Positions 14,189-62,368 of a stretch of 64,000 bases of DNA are shown piece after piece. Under the pieces are notes generated by a model. The model saw only the letters and a list, made by a program, of their open reading frames with translations. It did no database searches and was not told the DNA's origin. Numbering within the stretch: the first letter of the stretch is position 1; each line of letters opens with the position of its first letter. The DNA is taken from NCBI GenBank assembly GCA_018661705.1, contig JABJHR010000010.1, positions 66,911 through 130,910 of the forward strand, written 5' to 3'. The position numbers were made by a program, and so were the translations under genes. The DNA is from Candidatus Woesearchaeota archaeon. Its GTDB lineage: Archaea; Nanobdellota; Nanobdellia; Woesearchaeales; DSVV01.

Positions 14189-14307
14189 TAAAAATAGAAA
14201 AGTCGTAAAAGGATAAAGTTTAAATATTCTTTTTCTTTTCCTTTAATTTTGTGGGGTTGGTTTTAAGTAATGTGAAAACAGTAGATACCCTATCTTTGGT
14301 GTTAAAA

Positions 14308-14393
14308 AATACAACCACAATGGCCAGGTGAGGCGAAGCTGAATAGGACTTTTTACGCAGTAAAAAGGTCCGTCTGTGCCAATATTGTTGTTG
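14308..14393 (+). repeat. Repeat family B copy (B2)
   Basis: ACAACCACAATGGCCAGGTGAGGCGAAGCTGAATAGGACTTTTTAC-GCA-GTAAAAAGGTCCGTCTGTGCCAATATTGTTGTTG. Terminal stem AACAAC/GTTGTT, inner 11-bp hairpin. Confidence 0.7.
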
Positions 14394-14439
14394 TATTTTT
14401 AATTATTAAAAAAGTAAAAAACAAAAAGGTAAAAACAAA

Positions 14440-18698: not shown

Positions 18699-21389
18699 TT
18701 ATAAATCAATCAATCGTTTTTGTTTTAATTTAGTGAATTCAACAACATCATCTTCTTTATCATTCTCTTTTTTTGATTCATCTACTGAATCAGAATTAGT
18801 TTTTTCATTCTTATCATTAATTATGTTCTTTTTTTCATTTCCGTTTTTTCTTCTTTTCTCAACAATAATCTTATCTCTCATATTATCTGCAACTTCTAAT
18901 TTATATTGGATTTCTCTTGCTTTTTCAATTACATGTTTTGGCATGCCTGCTAATTTTGCAACATGCACACCAAAGCTTTTATCAGTGCCACCTTCTTGTA
19001 ATTTTCTTAAGAATATTAGTTCTTCTTTATTTTCTTTAACAGCAATGTGATAGTTTTTAACACCCTCAAACTTTTCTAACTTTGTTAAAACATGGTAATG
19101 TGTTGCAAACATTGTTTTTGCTTTAACTTTTTCATTGATATACTCTGCAACACTCCAAGCAATACTAACTCCATCAAACGTACTTGTGCCACGACCAATT
19201 TCATCCATTATGATTAGTGATTTAGATGTTGCATTATTAAGAATTGTAGCTGTTTCATTCATTTCTACCATAAATGTAGATTGTCCATGGGTTAAATCAT
19301 CATGCGCTCCTACCCTAGTAAAAATTCTATCAACAATTCCAATCTCTGCTTTTTTTGCAGGAACAAAACATCCAATCTGTGCCATTAAAACACATAAAGC
19401 AACTTGTCTCATTACTGTGCTCTTTCCAGACATGTTAGGCCCTGTAATTATCATCATTTTATTATCATTGTTAATAAAAATATCATTGGGAATGTAAACT
19501 TTTTCAATTTTCTCAATAACTGGATGTCTACATTCTTCTAATTTCATTGCAAATTTGTAGTCTACATCTGGCTTACAATAATTATTTTCACTTGCAATAT
19601 TTGCAAAGCTTAAGAAAACATCTATTTCAGAAATAAAATCACTTACGTCCTGAATTTGAATTGTTTGTTCAATAATGGTTGAGCAAACTTCTTGAAATAA
19701 TTTTAATTCTAATGTTTTGATTTTTTCTTCTGCTCCTAAGATTTTTTCTTCATATTGTTTTAGTTCTTCTGTAATATATCTTTCAGCATTTGCCATTGTT
19801 TGTTTTCTAATATAAACAAGGCTACCATCTTGATTTTTTGGAAGAAGATGTAAATTTGATTTTGTTATTTCAATAAAATAACCAAACACCCTATTAAAAC
19901 CAACTTTTAATGATTTAATTCCTGTTTTTTCTCTTTCTCTTTTTTCAATGTCTTTAATATATCCTCTACCATTTCTACAAATGTCATGGTACTCATCTAA
20001 TTCTTTATTATGTCCTTGTTTTATAATCCCTCCATCATTAACACTTAATGGTGGTTCATCTTTAATTGCAGCTTCAATTAGCCCAACTATTTCTTTCATA
20101 TCACTTACAATACTTACTTTTTCCAAATACTTATTTTTCAAATATTTTTCATCTAATAATGTTTTATCTACTTCTGTAAAAATTCTTTTTAATTCAGGAA
20201 TTACTCTTAATGATTCTTTTAATGCAATTAAATCACGAGCATTTGCATTTCCATAATTAACTCTTGAAATTAGTCTTTCAATATCTTTTACACTCTCTAA
20301 AACTTCTTTTAATTCTTGCCTAACAAGAATGTTTCTAAATAAAAAATCAACAGCATTTAGTCTTTGATTAATTTCTTCAATATCAAGAAGTGGATTAAGC
20401 AACCATCTTTTTAATAGTCTGGAACCCATTGGTGTAAGTGTTTTATCGACGACATCTAATAATGTATCATTTGAAGTATTATCTCTGATGTTACTTACAA
20501 TCTCTAGATTTCTAATTGTTGATTTGTCTAGGTTCATAAATTCATTTGTTGAAAAATATCTTATTTTGTTAATGTGTGTTAAACTAGTTTTTTGTGTTTC
20601 TTGGAGATAACTAATTAATGCGCCTGCACTTGCAATACTAAGTTTTCTTCCTTCTAGGCCATACCCTTCTAAATTTATGGTTTTAAATTGTTCAGTTAAG
20701 TTTTTACTTGCAATATCATGGAAATAAAATCTATCTTCATATTCGTTTAAGTAAAAGTTTTGTTTTTTTAATTCAGTAATTACTTTGTTATTAACTTGCA
20801 TACTTGGGAATATGATTTCAGCAGGACTAATTCTATGGATTTCACTCATTAATTTATCTTCACTAACTTCCGTTGTTAAAAATTCACCTGTTGATAAATC
20901 AACAATTGCAATTCCAATTACATTTTCGGTTTCTTTACTTTGGTTTAAAATTTTAGATGAGCTAGAAGTATTAGAATTAGCAAAATTCATTGAGAAATAC
21001 AAACTCATTAAATAATTATTTGCTTTATCTGAAATTAAACCACTATCAATAATTGTTCCAGGTGTCACAACTCTAACAACATCTCTTTTAACAACACCTT
21101 TTGCAAACTTTGGATTTTCTATTTGTTCACAAATTGCACATTTAATCCCTGCTCTAATTAATTTTGCTAAATAATTATCTAATGCATGGTAGGGAAGGCC
21201 TGCTAATGGTACTGGATTTTTAGTTCCTCGTTTTGTTAAGGTAATATTGAGAACTTTGGATGCTAATTTAGCATCATCATAGAACATTTCATAAAAATCT
21301 CCCATTCTAAATAATATTAAACAATCTGGATGCTTTTCTTTAAAGAAAACAAACTGTTTCATAGCTGGTGTTAAGTTGTCTTTGTCCAT
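18699..21389 (-). CDS. mutS: DNA mismatch repair protein MutS (MutS1 type)
   Basis: 896 aa; N-terminal mismatch-binding RMGDFYEMFYDDA, Walker A GPNMSGKSTVMRQ, ...DEIGRGTST.... Has an N/S-rich low-complexity insert and a K/E/N-rich C-terminal tail. Confidence 0.85.
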   Translation of the reverse strand: MDKDNLTPAMKQFVFFKEKHPDCLILFRMGDFYEMFYDDAKLASKVLNITLTKRGTKNPVPLAGLPYHALDNYLAKLIRAGIKCAICEQIENPKFAKGVVKRDVVRVVTPGTIIDSGLISDKANNYLMSLYFSMNFANSNTSSSSKILNQSKETENVIGIAIVDLSTGEFLTTEVSEDKLMSEIHRISPAEIIFPSMQVNNKVITELKKQNFYLNEYEDRFYFHDIASKNLTEQFKTINLEGYGLEGRKLSIASAGALISYLQETQKTSLTHINKIRYFSTNEFMNLDKSTIRNLEIVSNIRDNTSNDTLLDVVDKTLTPMGSRLLKRWLLNPLLDIEEINQRLNAVDFLFRNILVRQELKEVLESVKDIERLISRVNYGNANARDLIALKESLRVIPELKRIFTEVDKTLLDEKYLKNKYLEKVSIVSDMKEIVGLIEAAIKDEPPLSVNDGGIIKQGHNKELDEYHDICRNGRGYIKDIEKREREKTGIKSLKVGFNRVFGYFIEITKSNLHLLPKNQDGSLVYIRKQTMANAERYITEELKQYEEKILGAEEKIKTLELKLFQEVCSTIIEQTIQIQDVSDFISEIDVFLSFANIASENNYCKPDVDYKFAMKLEECRHPVIEKIEKVYIPNDIFINNDNKMMIITGPNMSGKSTVMRQVALCVLMAQIGCFVPAKKAEIGIVDRIFTRVGAHDDLTHGQSTFMVEMNETATILNNATSKSLIIMDEIGRGTSTFDGVSIAWSVAEYINEKVKAKTMFATHYHVLTKLEKFEGVKNYHIAVKENKEELIFLRKLQEGGTDKSFGVHVAKLAGMPKHVIEKAREIQYKLEVADNMRDKIIVEKRRKNGNEKKNIINDKNEKTNSDSVDESKKENDKEDDVVEFTKLKQKRLIDL

Positions 21390-22066: not shown

Positions 22067-22103
22067 TTCTGTTTTTTATTTTTTATCTGTTTAGAATTTT
22101 TTT

Positions 22104-22185
22104 AATAATGTAGGTTGACAGGGGGTTGTCCCTTACGGGGTGGTCGATAGGTTTGAACGAAGTGAAAATCGTCTACCATTATTAA
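22104..22185 (+). repeat. Repeat family C copy (C1)
   Basis: AATAATGTAGGTTGACAGGGGGTTGTCCCTTACGGGGTGGTCGATAGGTTTGAACGAAGTGAAAATCGTCTACCATTATT. Closing stem AATAATG/CATTATT and a GC-rich hairpin with GGGGG. Confidence 0.6.
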
Positions 22186-22222
22186 AATAAAAAAATTCAA
22201 ATTCTTAGAAAAACCATCACAA

Positions 22223-22831: not shown

Positions 22832-22953
22832 AATATATAATTAAAGGGTTCTATTAATAAATATTTGTATAAATACATATTAAATTATATTTAAACATAG
22901 GATTTAGTAACAATGTCACATACAAAAAACAACAATGGCGCACTTTAATAATC

Positions 22954-23060
22954 CAACAATAATGGCACAGACTGGCCGGGGGTTGGCTCCTTCGGAGTGG
23001 CCAGTAGGACTAATTCGAACATAGTGAGAATTTGGACGTCTGTTGCCATTATTATTGTTG
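22954..23060 (+). repeat. Repeat family C copy (C2), immediately upstream of tRNA-Met
   Basis: CAACAATAATGGCACAGACTGGCCGGGGGTTGGCTCCTTCGGAGTGGCCAGTAGGACTAATTCGAACATAGTGAGAATTTGGACGTCTGTTGCCATTATTATTGTTG. A 19-bp closing stem, a CTCC-UUCG-GGAG hairpin, GGGGG. Confidence 0.65.
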
Positions 23061-23135
23061 GATTCATTATCTACTTATTTTCAATCAAAAACAGTAAAAA
23101 CATTTATAAACAAATTACTTTTCTTAAGACATCAT

Positions 23136-23309
23136 GGCGGCATAACTCAGCCTGGAAGATGTTGATCATCTGGGCAATTAGAGTGCCACGCTCATATTGT
23201 TGAGCTAGGAGTTCCTTAATTGGGATGATGACTAAACAAGAGGCACGTGGATGTCCCGAGTTCAAATTTTGAAAAAGTTATTTTTCAATTGAAAGTCTCG
23301 GTGCCGCCA
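23136..23309 (+). tRNA. tRNA-Met/Ile2 (anticodon CAU) interrupted by three putative introns (D-arm 23 nt, canonical 37/38 48 nt, T-loop 29 nt)
   Basis: Hand-folded. Acceptor GGCGGCA/TGCCGCC, D-stem ACTC/GAGT with loop AGCCTGGAA, anticodon stem CCACG/CGTGG with loop CUCAUAA, variable ATGTC, T-arm CCGAG-TTCAAAT-[intron]-CTCGG, discriminator A, then oligo-T. Mature length 74. Confidence 0.5.
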
Positions 23310-23345
23310 CTTTTTTATCTATATAATAAAAATTGGGGTGAAAGA

Positions 23346-28302: not shown

Positions 28303-28373
28303 GTTTGTTAGTCTTGTTAATTTAAGTGTATTAATCATGAATGGGTGCCTTTTACACTTGAATCCATAAAAAT

Positions 28374-28446
28374 CCGGGAAAGTGCCTCATCCCACATTAA
28401 AGTGTGGGGTATGATGAGGCACTTTCCCGGATTTTTAGGATCCCAT
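28374..28446. other. 30-bp near-perfect palindrome/hairpin AAAAATCCGGGAAAGTGCCTCATCCCACA-TTAAAG-TGTGGGGTATGATGAGGCACTTTCCCGGATTTTT
   Basis: Read directly; followed by a second hairpin, CCCATGAAAGCA ... TGCTTTCATGTGG (28455-28525). Confidence 0.6.
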
Positions 28447-45280: not shown

Positions 45281-45516
45281 ATGAGTGACATGTCCTACGG
45301 ACCTAGTGTTTAATTTTATAATGTGGTGAGATAACAAAAAACAACAACAAAGGCACAGACGGACTTTTTCCAAAAGTCCTATTCGGCCGGTACTTGAGAG
45401 TTCGTAGAACTCACTCTCTTCGCACCACCTCATCTGGCCGTGTTGTTTTTTGTACTAAGAAGATAATATTTAATACTCTTTAACAATTGCGGATGCTATT
45501 TTTCTCACTAAGAGTT
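45281..45516 (-). repeat. Composite element: A 3'-half, B copy (B3, 45339-45448, with an extra internal hairpin), then A 5'-half, all in reverse orientation
   Basis: gagtgacatgtcctacggacctagtgtt ... aacaacaacaaaggcacagacggactttttccaaaagtcc...ggccgtgttgtt ... taatactctttaacaattgcggatgctatttttctcactaagag. Confidence 0.65.
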
Positions 45517-48424: not shown

Positions 48425-48572
48425 CCTAGCGAAAAATAGCATTCGCAATTGTTAAAGAGTAATAATATTTAATATTTTAATACAAAAAATAACCATGGCC
48501 AGGCGAGGTGAAACCGAGTAGGATTTTTTGAGTGGAACGAAAAAAGTCCGTCTGTGCCTTTGTTGTTATTTT
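48425..48572 (+). repeat. A 5'-half (48425-48470) directly followed by a B copy (B4, 48486-48572)
   Basis: TAGCGAAAAATAGCATTCGCAATTGTTAAAGAGTAATAATATTT...AATAACCATGGCCAGGCGAGGTGAAACCGAGTAGGATTTTTTG-AGTGGAA-CGAAAAAAGTCCGTCTGTGCCTTTGTTGTTATTTT. Confidence 0.65.
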
Positions 48573-48600
48573 TTGTTCTTATACTTTCAAAGTTTTATTA

Positions 48601-49002
48601 ATGTCATTAAATAACTTTAAAATGGATTTACAAAAAAGAATTGAAACAATAAGAAAAAGAGTTGCAGAGAATAAAGCATTTAACCCTAATTGTTTTGGTG
48701 TTGCTTTGTACTTAGCTGGGTTTAGTGATAATTTGGCTTCAATTAGAAGAATAGGTGCTGAAGCTGTCTTAGGAGAAGAATTAACTCTTCCACAACCTGG
48801 TTGTTTTGTTACATTTAGATCCAGTAAAAGATATATGGAGTTACATCACCTAGGAATAATTCTTAATGGCAATCCCAAAGAAATGGCCCATTATCATTCA
48901 AATACAGGCTTAGTTTTAGACGAAAACATAAAGGCATTTCAAGAAAAACATTATAAGGGATATATGGTTAAATATTATCAAGCGAATCAACAAACATCAT
49001 AA
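48601..49002 (+). CDS. hypothetical protein
   Basis: Start moved to MSLNNFKMDLQ... because the track start at 48532 lies inside the B4 repeat. Confidence 0.4.
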   Translation: MSLNNFKMDLQKRIETIRKRVAENKAFNPNCFGVALYLAGFSDNLASIRRIGAEAVLGEELTLPQPGCFVTFRSSKRYMELHHLGIILNGNPKEMAHYHSNTGLVLDENIKAFQEKHYKGYMVKYYQANQQTS

Positions 49003-49038: not shown

Positions 49039-49734
49039 ATGCATATGAGAACTAAAATCATTGCAACTATTGGCCCTGCTTCTATGAAAAAAGTTAAACA
49101 AATGTGTAAAGCAGGAATGCATATTGCAAGGATTAATACGAAATATGGTAAAACCAAAGAGTATGAAAAGATTGTTTCTGATTTAAGAAAAACAAAATGT
49201 AAAATTATGTTTGATATTAAAGGTCCTATGCATATTGAATGGTTAAAGAAAAAAGATTTTGATTTTATTGCGGTTTCTTTTGCTCAAACAGCTAAACAAA
49301 TTAGAGAAATAAGAAAAGCATTTTCTCCAAGACGAATTAGAATTATCTCAAAGATTGAAAACAGAAAAGGTTTTCACAATTTAGCAGAGTTAATCAGAGA
49401 AAGTGATGGAATAATGGTGGCAAGAGGAGATTTAGGAAGACATGTTCCATTTGAAGAAGTTCCAATACTTCAAAAATTAATTATTAGAAGATGCAATAAA
49501 AAAAATACAATGGTAATCACTGCAACTGAGATGTTATTATCAATGGTTAAATCTAAAATTCCAGAAAGAGCAGAAGTAAGTGATGTTGCAAATGCAATAT
49601 TAGATGGCAGCAATGGAGTAATGCTATCAGAAGAGTCTGCTATTGGCAAACACCCTGTATTAGCTGTCCAAACAATGGCTAAAGTGATTACTTGCACTGA
49701 GAAGAATATGGGTAGATTGAGTGTTTGTGATTGA
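49039..49734 (+). CDS. pyruvate-kinase-like protein, truncated (231 aa; PK barrel motifs only)
   Basis: MRTKIIATIGPAS...AGMHIARINTKYG (PK N-terminus) and ITATEMLLSMVKSKIPERAEVSDVANAILDGSNGVMLSEESAIGKHP (PK active-site region). No B-domain insertion and no C-terminal domain. Confidence 0.5.
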   Translation: MHMRTKIIATIGPASMKKVKQMCKAGMHIARINTKYGKTKEYEKIVSDLRKTKCKIMFDIKGPMHIEWLKKKDFDFIAVSFAQTAKQIREIRKAFSPRRIRIISKIENRKGFHNLAELIRESDGIMVARGDLGRHVPFEEVPILQKLIIRRCNKKNTMVITATEMLLSMVKSKIPERAEVSDVANAILDGSNGVMLSEESAIGKHPVLAVQTMAKVITCTEKNMGRLSVCD

Positions 49735-49921: not shown

Positions 49922-50072
49922 GCCAGCGTGGCACAATCTGGTACTGCGCAAGCCTGGAAATGTGCTTTTGCGCAAAGGTTAGCTTGTTGGCTTCGGCCTA
50001 TCCCGGTTCAAATATCAAACTGTGTTTAATACACAAAAAAACGCAGTTTTTTTGAATGTCCGGGCGCTGGCG
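49922..50072 (+). tRNA. tRNA-Ser (anticodon GGA) with two putative introns (37/38, 21 nt; T-loop, 46 nt)
   Basis: Hand-folded. Acceptor GCCAGCG/CGCTGGC, U8, 3-bp D-stem GCA/TGC, anticodon stem CAAGC/GCTTG with loop CUGGAAA, long variable arm TTGGCTTCGGCCTAT, T-arm CCCGG-TTCAAAT-[intron]-CCGGG, discriminator G, oligo-T. Mature length 84. Confidence 0.5.
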
Positions 50073-62236: not shown

Positions 62237-62260
62237 AATTAGAGATTAAGATCTAAAGCA

Positions 62261-62340
62261 AAAAATAATAACATTGGTGCTGGTGGGGGTGGGTTGGCTC
62301 CGTCGGAGTACCCGCCAGCTGCCGTTGTTGTTATTATTTT
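62261..62340 (+). repeat. Repeat family C copy (C3)
   Basis: AATAACATTGGTGCTGGTGGGGGTGGGTTGGCTCCGTCGGAGTACCCGCCAGCTGCCGTTGTTGTTATT. Closing stem AATAACA/TGTTATT, stem GCTGGTGGG/CCCGCCAGC, inner CUCC-GUCG-GGAG. Confidence 0.6.
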
Positions 62341-62368
62341 TTGCATCTACAAGAACACATAAAAAAAC

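Follow-up and report, generated by a model that had tools for sequence, protein, structure and literature searches.

How should a 174-nucleotide (nt) stretch of archaeal DNA be read when it holds the parts of a tRNA but standard tRNA finders report none in it, and where exactly would its exons be joined? This question is raised by positions 23136 to 23309 (plus strand) of a 64,000-nt stretch of contig JABJHR010000010.1 from a Candidatus Woesearchaeota archaeon (GenBank assembly GCA_018661705.1), hereafter called the window, in which a first-pass annotation had proposed a tRNA-Met(CAU) gene split by three introns. Our findings suggest that the locus is very probably a functional, independently transcribed tRNA(CAU) gene of a member of the Woesearchaeota (DPANN) that is broken by three introns of the bulge-helix-bulge (BHB) type. 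The gene structure, the exact junctions, the BHB motifs, and the conservation of the gene are established by the analysis described here.

A tRNA(CAU) gene hidden by three introns

The 174-nt precursor consists of four exons alternating with three introns in the order GGCGGCATAACTCAGCCTGG-aagatgttgatcatctgggcaa-TTAGAGTGCCACGCTCATA-ttgttgagctaggagttccttaattgggatgatgactaaacaagaggc-ACGTGGATGTCCCGAGTTCAAA-ttttgaaaaagttatttttcaattgaaag-TCTCGGTGCCGCCA (Table 1). All four exons are collinear, on one strand, and within 174 nt, and thus this is neither a split nor a permuted tRNA gene. In-silico removal of the three introns leaves a mature tRNA of 75 nt with the D-loop AGCCUGGUUA (that is, AGCCTGGTTA). 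The spliced molecule folds into a cloverleaf with a 7-bp acceptor stem, a 4-bp D-stem, a 5-bp anticodon stem, a 5-bp T-stem, the T-loop TTCAAAT, and A73, and ARAGORN called it as a canonical tRNA-Met(cat). The first-pass annotation was right about the gene ends, the CAU anticodon, all four stems, and the existence of three insertions. CCA is not encoded at the 3' end of the gene. The G+C content of the exons is 57%, compared with 41%, 42%, and 17% for introns 1, 2, and 3 and approximately 31% for the genome. A box of the form TTTATAAA, TTTAAAAA, or TTTTATAA was found 24 to 32 nt upstream of every ortholog described below, and a T-run was found 3' of every one; we predict that these elements act as an archaeal promoter and an archaeal-type terminator, respectively.

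Table 1. Coordinates of the tRNA(CAU) gene, its parts, and its flanking elements in the window
Feature	Positions	Strand	Description
TATA-like box TTTATAAA	23103..23110	+	25 nt upstream of the mature 5' end (G1)
Exon 1 GGCGGCATAACTCAGCCTGG	23136..23155	+	Acceptor 5' strand, 5' D-stem, D-loop to G19
Intron 1 AAGATGTTGATCATCTGGGCAA	23156..23177	+	22 nt, D-loop, between G19 and U20
Exon 2 TTAGAGTGCCACGCTCATA	23178..23196	+	D-loop 3' part, 3' D-stem, anticodon stem 5' strand, loop to A37
Intron 2	23197..23244	+	48 nt, canonical position 37/38
Putative guide-like segment of intron 2	23201..23231	+	Antisense, D'-like box, hairpin, C'-like motif, kink-turn-like
Exon 3 ACGTGGATGTCCCGAGTTCAAA	23245..23266	+	A38, anticodon stem 3' strand, variable loop, T-stem 5' strand, T-loop to A59
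Intron 3	23267..23295	+	29 nt, T-loop, position 59/60
Exon 4 TCTCGGTGCCGCCA	23296..23309	+	U60, T-stem 3' strand, acceptor 3' strand, discriminator A73
Oligo-T run TTTTTT (T6)	23311..23316	+	One base past A73

On unspliced DNA, ARAGORN reported no tRNA in the whole 64-kb window. Rfam reported no tRNA at gathering thresholds, at E values up to 10 around the locus, or at E values up to 0.5 window-wide. This silence is expected given the three insertions. ARAGORN had been among the tools proposed for checking the gene, and it gave a call only after in-silico splicing. Among the orthologs, Rfam RF00005 scored 48.9 bits on those with a single intron (threshold, 29) and missed those with two or three introns; ARAGORN, as run, called none of the orthologs.

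We scanned both strands of the window for a 7-bp acceptor stem combined with a 5-bp T-stem and a TTCRA T-loop, with an insertion in the T-loop permitted. Exactly two loci were found, the tRNA(CAU) gene and positions 49922 to 50072; 20 locally shuffled versions of the window gave a mean of 0.05. Before splicing, the 174-nt precursor has a folding energy of -61.8 kcal/mol (z = -5.1), a stability reached by 0 of 200 shuffles. The minimum-energy structure of the precursor has both the acceptor stem and the T-stem, along with a 3-nt bulge on either side of the T-loop intron helix. A chance origin of the tRNA gene is excluded by these results.

Self-splicing group I or group II introns, which run to hundreds of nucleotides with a catalytic core and in most cases occupy the anticodon loop of bacterial or organellar tRNAs, were also considered and were rejected, given that the insertions are only 22, 48, and 29 nt long and matched no Rfam intron family even at E <= 10. 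A search of the 64-kb window for other copies of the introns, which would be a sign of transposition, returned only short chance matches.

Intron-less orthologs fix the splice junctions

Orthologs were gathered from the loci of MutS relatives and through scans of genome and metagenome collections with the 5' exon (Table 2). They lie near the same MutS and exonuclease genes in related Woesearchaeota, and further ones were found in metagenomes. The scan of the genome-collection contigs with the 5' exon returned only the two metagenome-assembled genomes (MAGs) that were already known, the scan of viral contigs returned a single chance match in a GC-rich contig, and no syntenic tRNA copy was present at the locus of a more distant MutS relative, L026. 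The gene carries one intron in L016, L019, and L025, two in L003 and L004, and three in the window and L006, and the 37/38 intron is present in all seven orthologous lineages (43 to 54 nt).

Table 2. Intron content of the tRNA(CAU) gene in the window and in related loci
Locus	Assembly	MutS identity to window	D-loop intron	37/38 intron	59/60 intron	Remark
Window (= L001, L002)			22 nt	48 nt	29 nt	
L003 (= L007, L012, L018)	GCA_018657385.1	79%	None	47 nt	29 nt	
L004 (= L011, L015)		76%	None	47 nt	29 nt	
L006 (= L008)	GCA_043813525.1	72%	40 nt	54 nt	95 nt	
L025		71%	None	43 nt	None	Gene cut by contig end
L016, L019			None	48 nt	None	More distant

In the alleles that lack the D-loop intron (L003, L004, L025, L016, and L019), exons 1 and 2 abut directly and read ...AGCCTGG|TTAGAGT..., which sets the boundaries of intron 1 in the window at the positions given in Table 1. 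This junction cannot slide, given that the flanking bases differ. The alleles that lack the T-loop intron (L025, L016, and L019) read CC..GTTCAAATC..GG, with the T-loop TTCAAAT. An intron occupies the same 59/60 site in L003 and L004, where it has compensatory changes in its inner helix, and in L006, where it is considerably longer. The first-pass annotation had the correct length for the T-loop intron in the window but had placed it one base further downstream than the BHB motif does, a shift that leaves the mature sequence unaffected; its 48-nt intron at position 37/38 stands as proposed.

The exons are far better conserved than the introns. None of the 75 exon positions differs between the window and L003 or L004, and the introns of L003 and L004 are 79 to 88% identical to those of the window. 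The sequence of exon 1 is unchanged in L003, L004, and L006. In the other lineages, every substitution in an exon stem is compensatory: 7-66 changes from A-U to G-C, 28-42 changes from C-G to U-A, 30-40 and 31-39 are swapped in L016 and L019, and 52-62 changes from A-U to C-G in L006 and to U-A in L025. As a result, the anticodon stem CCACG/CGTGG becomes CTACG/CGTAG or CCAGA/TCTGG, and the T-stem CCGAG/CTCGG becomes CCGCG/CGCGG or CCGTG/CACGG.

BHB motifs at the three junction pairs

BHB geometry was evaluated by script as an outer helix, a 3-nt bulge, a 4-bp helix, a 3-nt bulge, and an inner helix, each bulge being cut 3' of its second nucleotide. A motif could be drawn at all three junction pairs, in strict form at 59/60, near-strict form at 37/38, and relaxed form in the D-loop, in agreement with the BHB-type introns that the first-pass annotation had expected. 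For intron 1, the central helix GCCT (23150-23153)/GGGC (23172-23175) has 4 of 4 bp, the bulges are GG^A and AA^T, and the inner helix AGATG/CATCT has 5 bp; in L006, the central helix is GCCT/AGGC. For intron 2, the anticodon stem serves as the outer helix, with TA^T and GC^A as the bulges. Its inner helix reads TGTT/AACA in both the window and L006; a compensatory change makes it TGTA/TACA in L003 and L004.

Intron 3 has the strict motif complete with outer and inner helices (hBHBh'). Its outer helix is the 5-bp T-stem, its central helix TTCA (23261-23264)/TGAA (23290-23293) has 4 of 4 bp, its bulges are AA^T and AG^T, and its inner helix of 8 bp, TTGAAAAA/TTTTTCAA, lies beyond a U.U mismatch. 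Variants in the relatives preserve these pairings, with TGGA in place of TGAA in the central helix of L004 and TTGGAAAG/CTTTTCAA as the inner helix of L003. The T-loop TTCAAA had been proposed to pair with the adjacent TTTGAA; instead, TTCA pairs with the distal TGAA at the 3' end of the intron, and the proximal TTGAAAAA pairs with the intronic TTTTTCAA. The junctions predicted by the BHB cut rule are the exact junctions read in the intron-less orthologs, and the match at intron 1 validates the rule as we applied it.

Alternative readings of the locus

The first-pass annotation had drawn a different D-arm, with a 23-nt intron 1 (23158-23180) at the border between the D-loop and the 3' D-stem and a mature tRNA of 74 nt with the D-loop AGCCTGGAA. 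This architecture also gives a cloverleaf that ARAGORN can call, but it implies a mature tRNA reading GCCUGGAAGAGU, no BHB can be drawn at its intron 1 boundaries in any of three equivalent registers, and the five orthologs without intron 1 read CTGG|TTAGAGT, which is impossible with a junction at 23158-23180. We regard it as virtually untenable; a 22-nt intron inside the D-loop after G19 and a 75-nt product take its place, and with this correction the BHB is recovered. We also considered that the locus could be a decaying tRNA pseudogene that has accumulated insertions and in which the BHB-like pairings are fortuitous, as the failure of standard finders to call it might suggest. However, the exons are perfectly conserved while the introns diverge, the substitutions in exon stems are all compensatory, the insertions occupy the same three sites in lineages that are approximately 22% diverged in MutS, the BHB rule exactly predicts the junctions of the intron-less alleles, and the promoter-like box and the terminator are kept in every copy. 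We consider such decay very improbable and favor a functional tRNA(CAU) gene with three BHB-type introns.

Several points weigh against reading the locus as a functional three-intron tRNA-Met gene. The outer helix of the intron 1 motif is imperfect (an A14-U20a pair and a bulged A21 precede the D-stem), and thus an endonuclease tolerant of relaxed motifs would be required; the 37/38 central helix CTCA/AGAG has 3 of 4 bp, with an A.A mismatch. No gene for EndA, the tRNA-splicing endonuclease, or for RtcB, RNase P, or a CCA-adding enzyme was found among the 51 open reading frames (ORFs) of at least 150 amino acids in the window, and neither tRNA_int_endo nor RtcB had a match among them. Splicing and expression of the locus are predictions, and a further, uninterrupted elongator tRNA-Met gene may be present elsewhere in the genome. 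The CAU anticodon also admits a different amino acid identity. We take the G1-C72 pair and the anticodon stem CCACG to exclude the archaeal initiator tRNA, and only the initiator. Archaea carry three CAU tRNAs, and the locus could, with the same intron architecture, encode tRNA-Ile2, in which C34 is converted to agmatidine to read AUA; the Met call by ARAGORN uses the anticodon alone. On the other hand, the canonical 37/38 intron is classic in archaeal elongator tRNA-Met. Moreover, the antisense element of intron 2, itself a putative reading, would put C34 at the box C/D methylation position, and methylated C34 (Cm34) is a modification of elongator tRNA-Met (PMC4033218). We view tRNA-Ile2 as an unlikely though serious alternative, and elongator tRNA-Met, a label taken from the anticodon alone, as the most likely identity.

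Host and intron gain and loss

The MutS gene (18699-21389, minus strand), 1.7 kb upstream of the tRNA gene, encodes a protein that is 100% identical to an NCBI Candidatus Woesearchaeota archaeon protein, and the following 120 MutS matches are from Woesearchaeota or Nanoarchaeota. The window also encodes the archaeal ribosomal proteins P0 and S24e and an Rpo7-like protein. Based on these matches, the host is a DPANN archaeon, and the earlier placement of the organism in a lineage known for disrupted tRNAs is borne out. The same contig is present in several metagenome assemblies.

A neighbor-joining tree of MutS (826 ungapped columns) has the topology ((window,(L003,L004)),L006),L025, with L026 as the outgroup. 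The window and L006 both have the D-loop intron, with the common 3' end ...GGCAA, and the simplest account is a precise loss in the ancestor of L003 and L004, for which a single-gene tree is only indicative. The T-loop intron is present in all tree members with the gene except for the basal L025. Close relatives with one, two, or three introns in one gene represent a natural series for the study of tRNA intron gain and loss.

Intron 2 as a putative methylation guide

Intron 2 is the best conserved of the three introns. Its shared layout consists of a 5' TGAGC, one spacer nucleotide, NNGA, a hairpin of variable sequence, and RAU-GA. In the window, the antisense TGAGC (23201-23205) is complementary to exon nucleotides G31 to A35 and is followed by a D'-like AGGA (23207-23210), a hairpin (23211-23226), and a GAU bulge plus GA (23227-23231), which together with the C'-like AUGAUGA (23225-23231) resemble a kink-turn (K-turn). 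The K-turn can be drawn with the hairpin as its canonical stem, a 3-nt bulge, and tandem G.A pairs, with the D'-like strand following the antisense. The antisense is TATGAGC in L003 and L004 and TGAGT in L016 and L019, as the complement of exon positions 31-35(37), and the D'-like box varies among AGGA, ACGA, and AUGA. A count by hand puts the partner of C34 at the fifth nucleotide before the D'-like box in six lineages (the window, L003, L004, L006, L016, and L019), in a duplex of only 5 to 7 bp compared to the usual minimum of 8 to 10 bp. RNAalifold prefers a helix between exon 31-35 and intron nucleotides 5-9, with one compensatory change from G-C to A-U, together with the hairpin. The exon 31-35:intron helix and the BHB fold are mutually exclusive.

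We considered that intron 2 might be a minimal, single-guide box C/D-like RNA for Cm34 on its own pre-tRNA, a speculative proposal to which we give limited credence. In such a scheme, intron 2, either in cis or after excision and circularization, would recruit L7Ae, Nop5, and fibrillarin for Cm34, and the modification would precede both the refolding of the precursor into the BHB and its splicing. There is precedent in the pre-tRNA-Trp intron, which guides Cm34 and methylation of U39 (Um39) and whose guide helix is likewise mutually exclusive with the BHB fold (PMC7994747, PMC4033218), and in the box C/D RNA sR-tMet, which guides Cm34 in haloarchaeal elongator tRNA-Met (PMC4033218). On this reading, intron 2 would have in common with these RNAs an antisense to the anticodon loop beside a K-turn-type motif, with C34 at the N+5 position relative to the D'-like box; it differs from them in having one C'/D'-like motif, no terminal C/D boxes, and an antisense of 5 to 7 nt. 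Indeed, neither a terminal box C (RUGAUGA) nor a box D (CUGA) is present at the ends of intron 2, which has one internal motif only, and this counts against a guide function, as do the weakness of the D'-like box and the degenerate motif of L025, which has a mismatch and has lost the 3' GA. No gene for L7Ae, Nop5, or fibrillarin was found among the same 51 window ORFs of at least 150 amino acids. If true, this proposal would extend the principle of the tRNA-Trp intron guide to tRNA-Met, in a much smaller RNA.

Proposed maturation and relation to known systems

Based on established archaeal biology, we would expect expression of the gene to be followed by EndA cleavage and exon ligation. Each pair of exon-intron boundaries in the precursor would fold into a BHB, with two 3-nt bulges around a 4-bp helix, and EndA would cleave every bulge 3' of its second nucleotide. 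The exons would then be joined by a ligase of the RtcB type, and maturation would be completed by RNase P, by trimming of the 3' end, and by the addition of CCA. DPANN lineages have been reported to carry an alpha4-type EndA with an extra L3 loop that is associated with increased disruption of tRNA genes, and multi-intron tRNAs were reported in DPANN, including a Woesearchaeota genome (Kaneta et al. 2018, PMC5829648). The same authors took the incomplete tRNA sets of DPANN genomes as a sign of disrupted genes that had escaped detection. The gene described here bears on which BHB variants a DPANN endonuclease must accept.

The three-intron tRNA gene is a fresh, well-documented example of a phenomenon already known in DPANN (ARMAN-2 and a Woesearchaeota genome) and in Thermoproteales. 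In ARMAN-2 (Candidatus Micrarchaeum), pre-tRNA-Cys(GCA) has a 59/60 intron and pre-tRNA-Pro(GGG) has both 53/54 and 59/60 introns, and the 59/60 introns were cut in vitro by ARMAN-2 EndA (Fujishima et al. 2011, PMC3239211). Our locus is similar in its DPANN host, in a short BHB intron at exactly 59/60, in the presence of multiple introns per gene, and in being missed by standard finders. It differs in belonging to another phylum-level lineage, the Woesearchaeota, and in a 59/60 motif that is strict hBHBh' compared to the relaxed hBH of ARMAN-2 tRNA-Cys. The endonucleases may differ as well: ARMAN-2 EndA is of the epsilon2 type, and DPANN outside Micrarchaeota are reported to have alpha4 with the L3 loop (PMC5829648).

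Archaeal tRNA genes have up to three introns each (PMC3239211), and three is also the reported maximum in Thermoproteales (Crenarchaeota; PMC4033280, PMC3239211). The Thermoproteales genes resemble ours in having up to three BHB introns at both canonical and noncanonical sites and in the endonuclease-dependent splicing that we predict for ours, but they belong to thermophilic TACK hosts with an (alpha-beta)2 EndA, and their introns show signs of transposition, whereas the 64-kb window has no other intron copy. Eukaryotic nuclear and nucleomorph tRNA genes are alike in the distribution of introns over three arms within one gene and in BHB dependence, and they differ in their heterotetrameric Sen endonuclease. 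A further comparison is with the Woesearchaeota and Pacearchaeota tRNA sets of Kaneta et al. 2018 (PMC5829648), which come from the same phylum, include disrupted and multi-intron tRNAs, and are in part incomplete. That survey used tRNAscan-SE 2 calls and covered one Woesearchaeota genome, and we did not find the tRNA(CAU) family, with its one-, two-, and three-intron allelic series, described in it.

A second multi-intron tRNA gene

The second locus returned by the acceptor/T-arm scan, 49922 to 50072 (plus strand), is a tRNA-Ser(GGA) gene interrupted at 37/38 by an intron of 21 nt with a relaxed BHB (49960-49980) and at 59/60 by one of 46 nt (50013-50058). The BHB of the 59/60 intron is strict, with TTCA/TGAA as the central helix and bulges AA^T and TG^T. 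The spliced product of 84 nt was called as tRNA-Ser(gga), and the unspliced gene was missed by both ARAGORN and Rfam. The gene is preceded, at a distance of 36 nt, by a TTTTATAAAT box and followed by a T7 run. The two tRNA genes that we could detect in the 64 kb are thus both multi-intron genes, each with a 59/60 intron. Given that both are invisible to ARAGORN and Rfam, such MAGs will yield misleading tRNA counts, codon-usage inferences, and estimates of completeness if the searches do not allow for introns.

Other features of the orthologous loci and the window

Some further features were observed at the related loci. L016 (8969-9091) and L019 (806-928) both have the T-stem GGGAG/CACCC, in which 52-62 is an A.A mismatch, and the Rfam score was 48.9 bits nonetheless. 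The MutS ortholog of L004 (6795-10832, protein P0003) contains an intein bearing a LAGLIDADG endonuclease domain and is 1345 amino acids long, compared to 896 in the window. On two metagenome contigs that are probably bacterial (L009, 2957-3260; L014, 1774-2046), the 5' portion of a tRNA-Met-like gene comes first, then an entire second tRNA gene, and finally a repeat of the anticodon-arm sequence together with the 3' portion of the first tRNA. This arrangement looks like the duplicated attachment site of an element integrated in a tRNA gene, or like nested tRNAs.

Within the window, three intergenic elements of approximately 90 to 115 nt (22097-22190, 22950-23064, and 62258-62344), one of which is only 70 nt upstream of the tRNA(CAU) gene, are each closed by a 14- to 16-nt A-rich/T-rich inverted repeat and have a GC-rich core with GGGGGT(T/G)G..C.CC.T.CGG.GT-like hairpins. 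They matched nothing in Rfam and are possibly a small structured-RNA or repeat family. A second hairpin-closed family (14305-14400 and 48482-48576, plus strand; 45334-45453, minus strand) shares ATGGCCAGG(T/C)GAGG(C/T)GAA(G/A)C(T/C)GA(A/G)TAGGA, an internal hairpin, and GTCCGTCTGTGCC. We considered whether the GC-rich elements near the gene (22950-23064 and others) could be pieces of signal recognition particle (SRP) RNA and whether the second family could be SRP-RNA-like pieces; Rfam gave no support for the former even at permissive thresholds and none for the latter. A long, near-perfect intergenic hairpin occupies positions 28317 to 28441 (AAAAATCCGGGAAAGTGCCTCATCCCACA ... TGTGGGGTATGATGAGGCACTTTCCCGGATTTTT), and its sole Rfam match, to an unrelated plastid 3' untranslated region family, was below threshold and most likely results from the hairpin alone. 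Finally, at 48532-49002 and 49039-49734 (plus strand), a 231-amino-acid ORF matches only the C-terminal part (profile positions 182 to 328) of the pyruvate kinase barrel domain and the ORF just upstream of it had no Pfam match; the pair could represent a pyruvate kinase gene that is split, frameshifted, or unusual in some other way.

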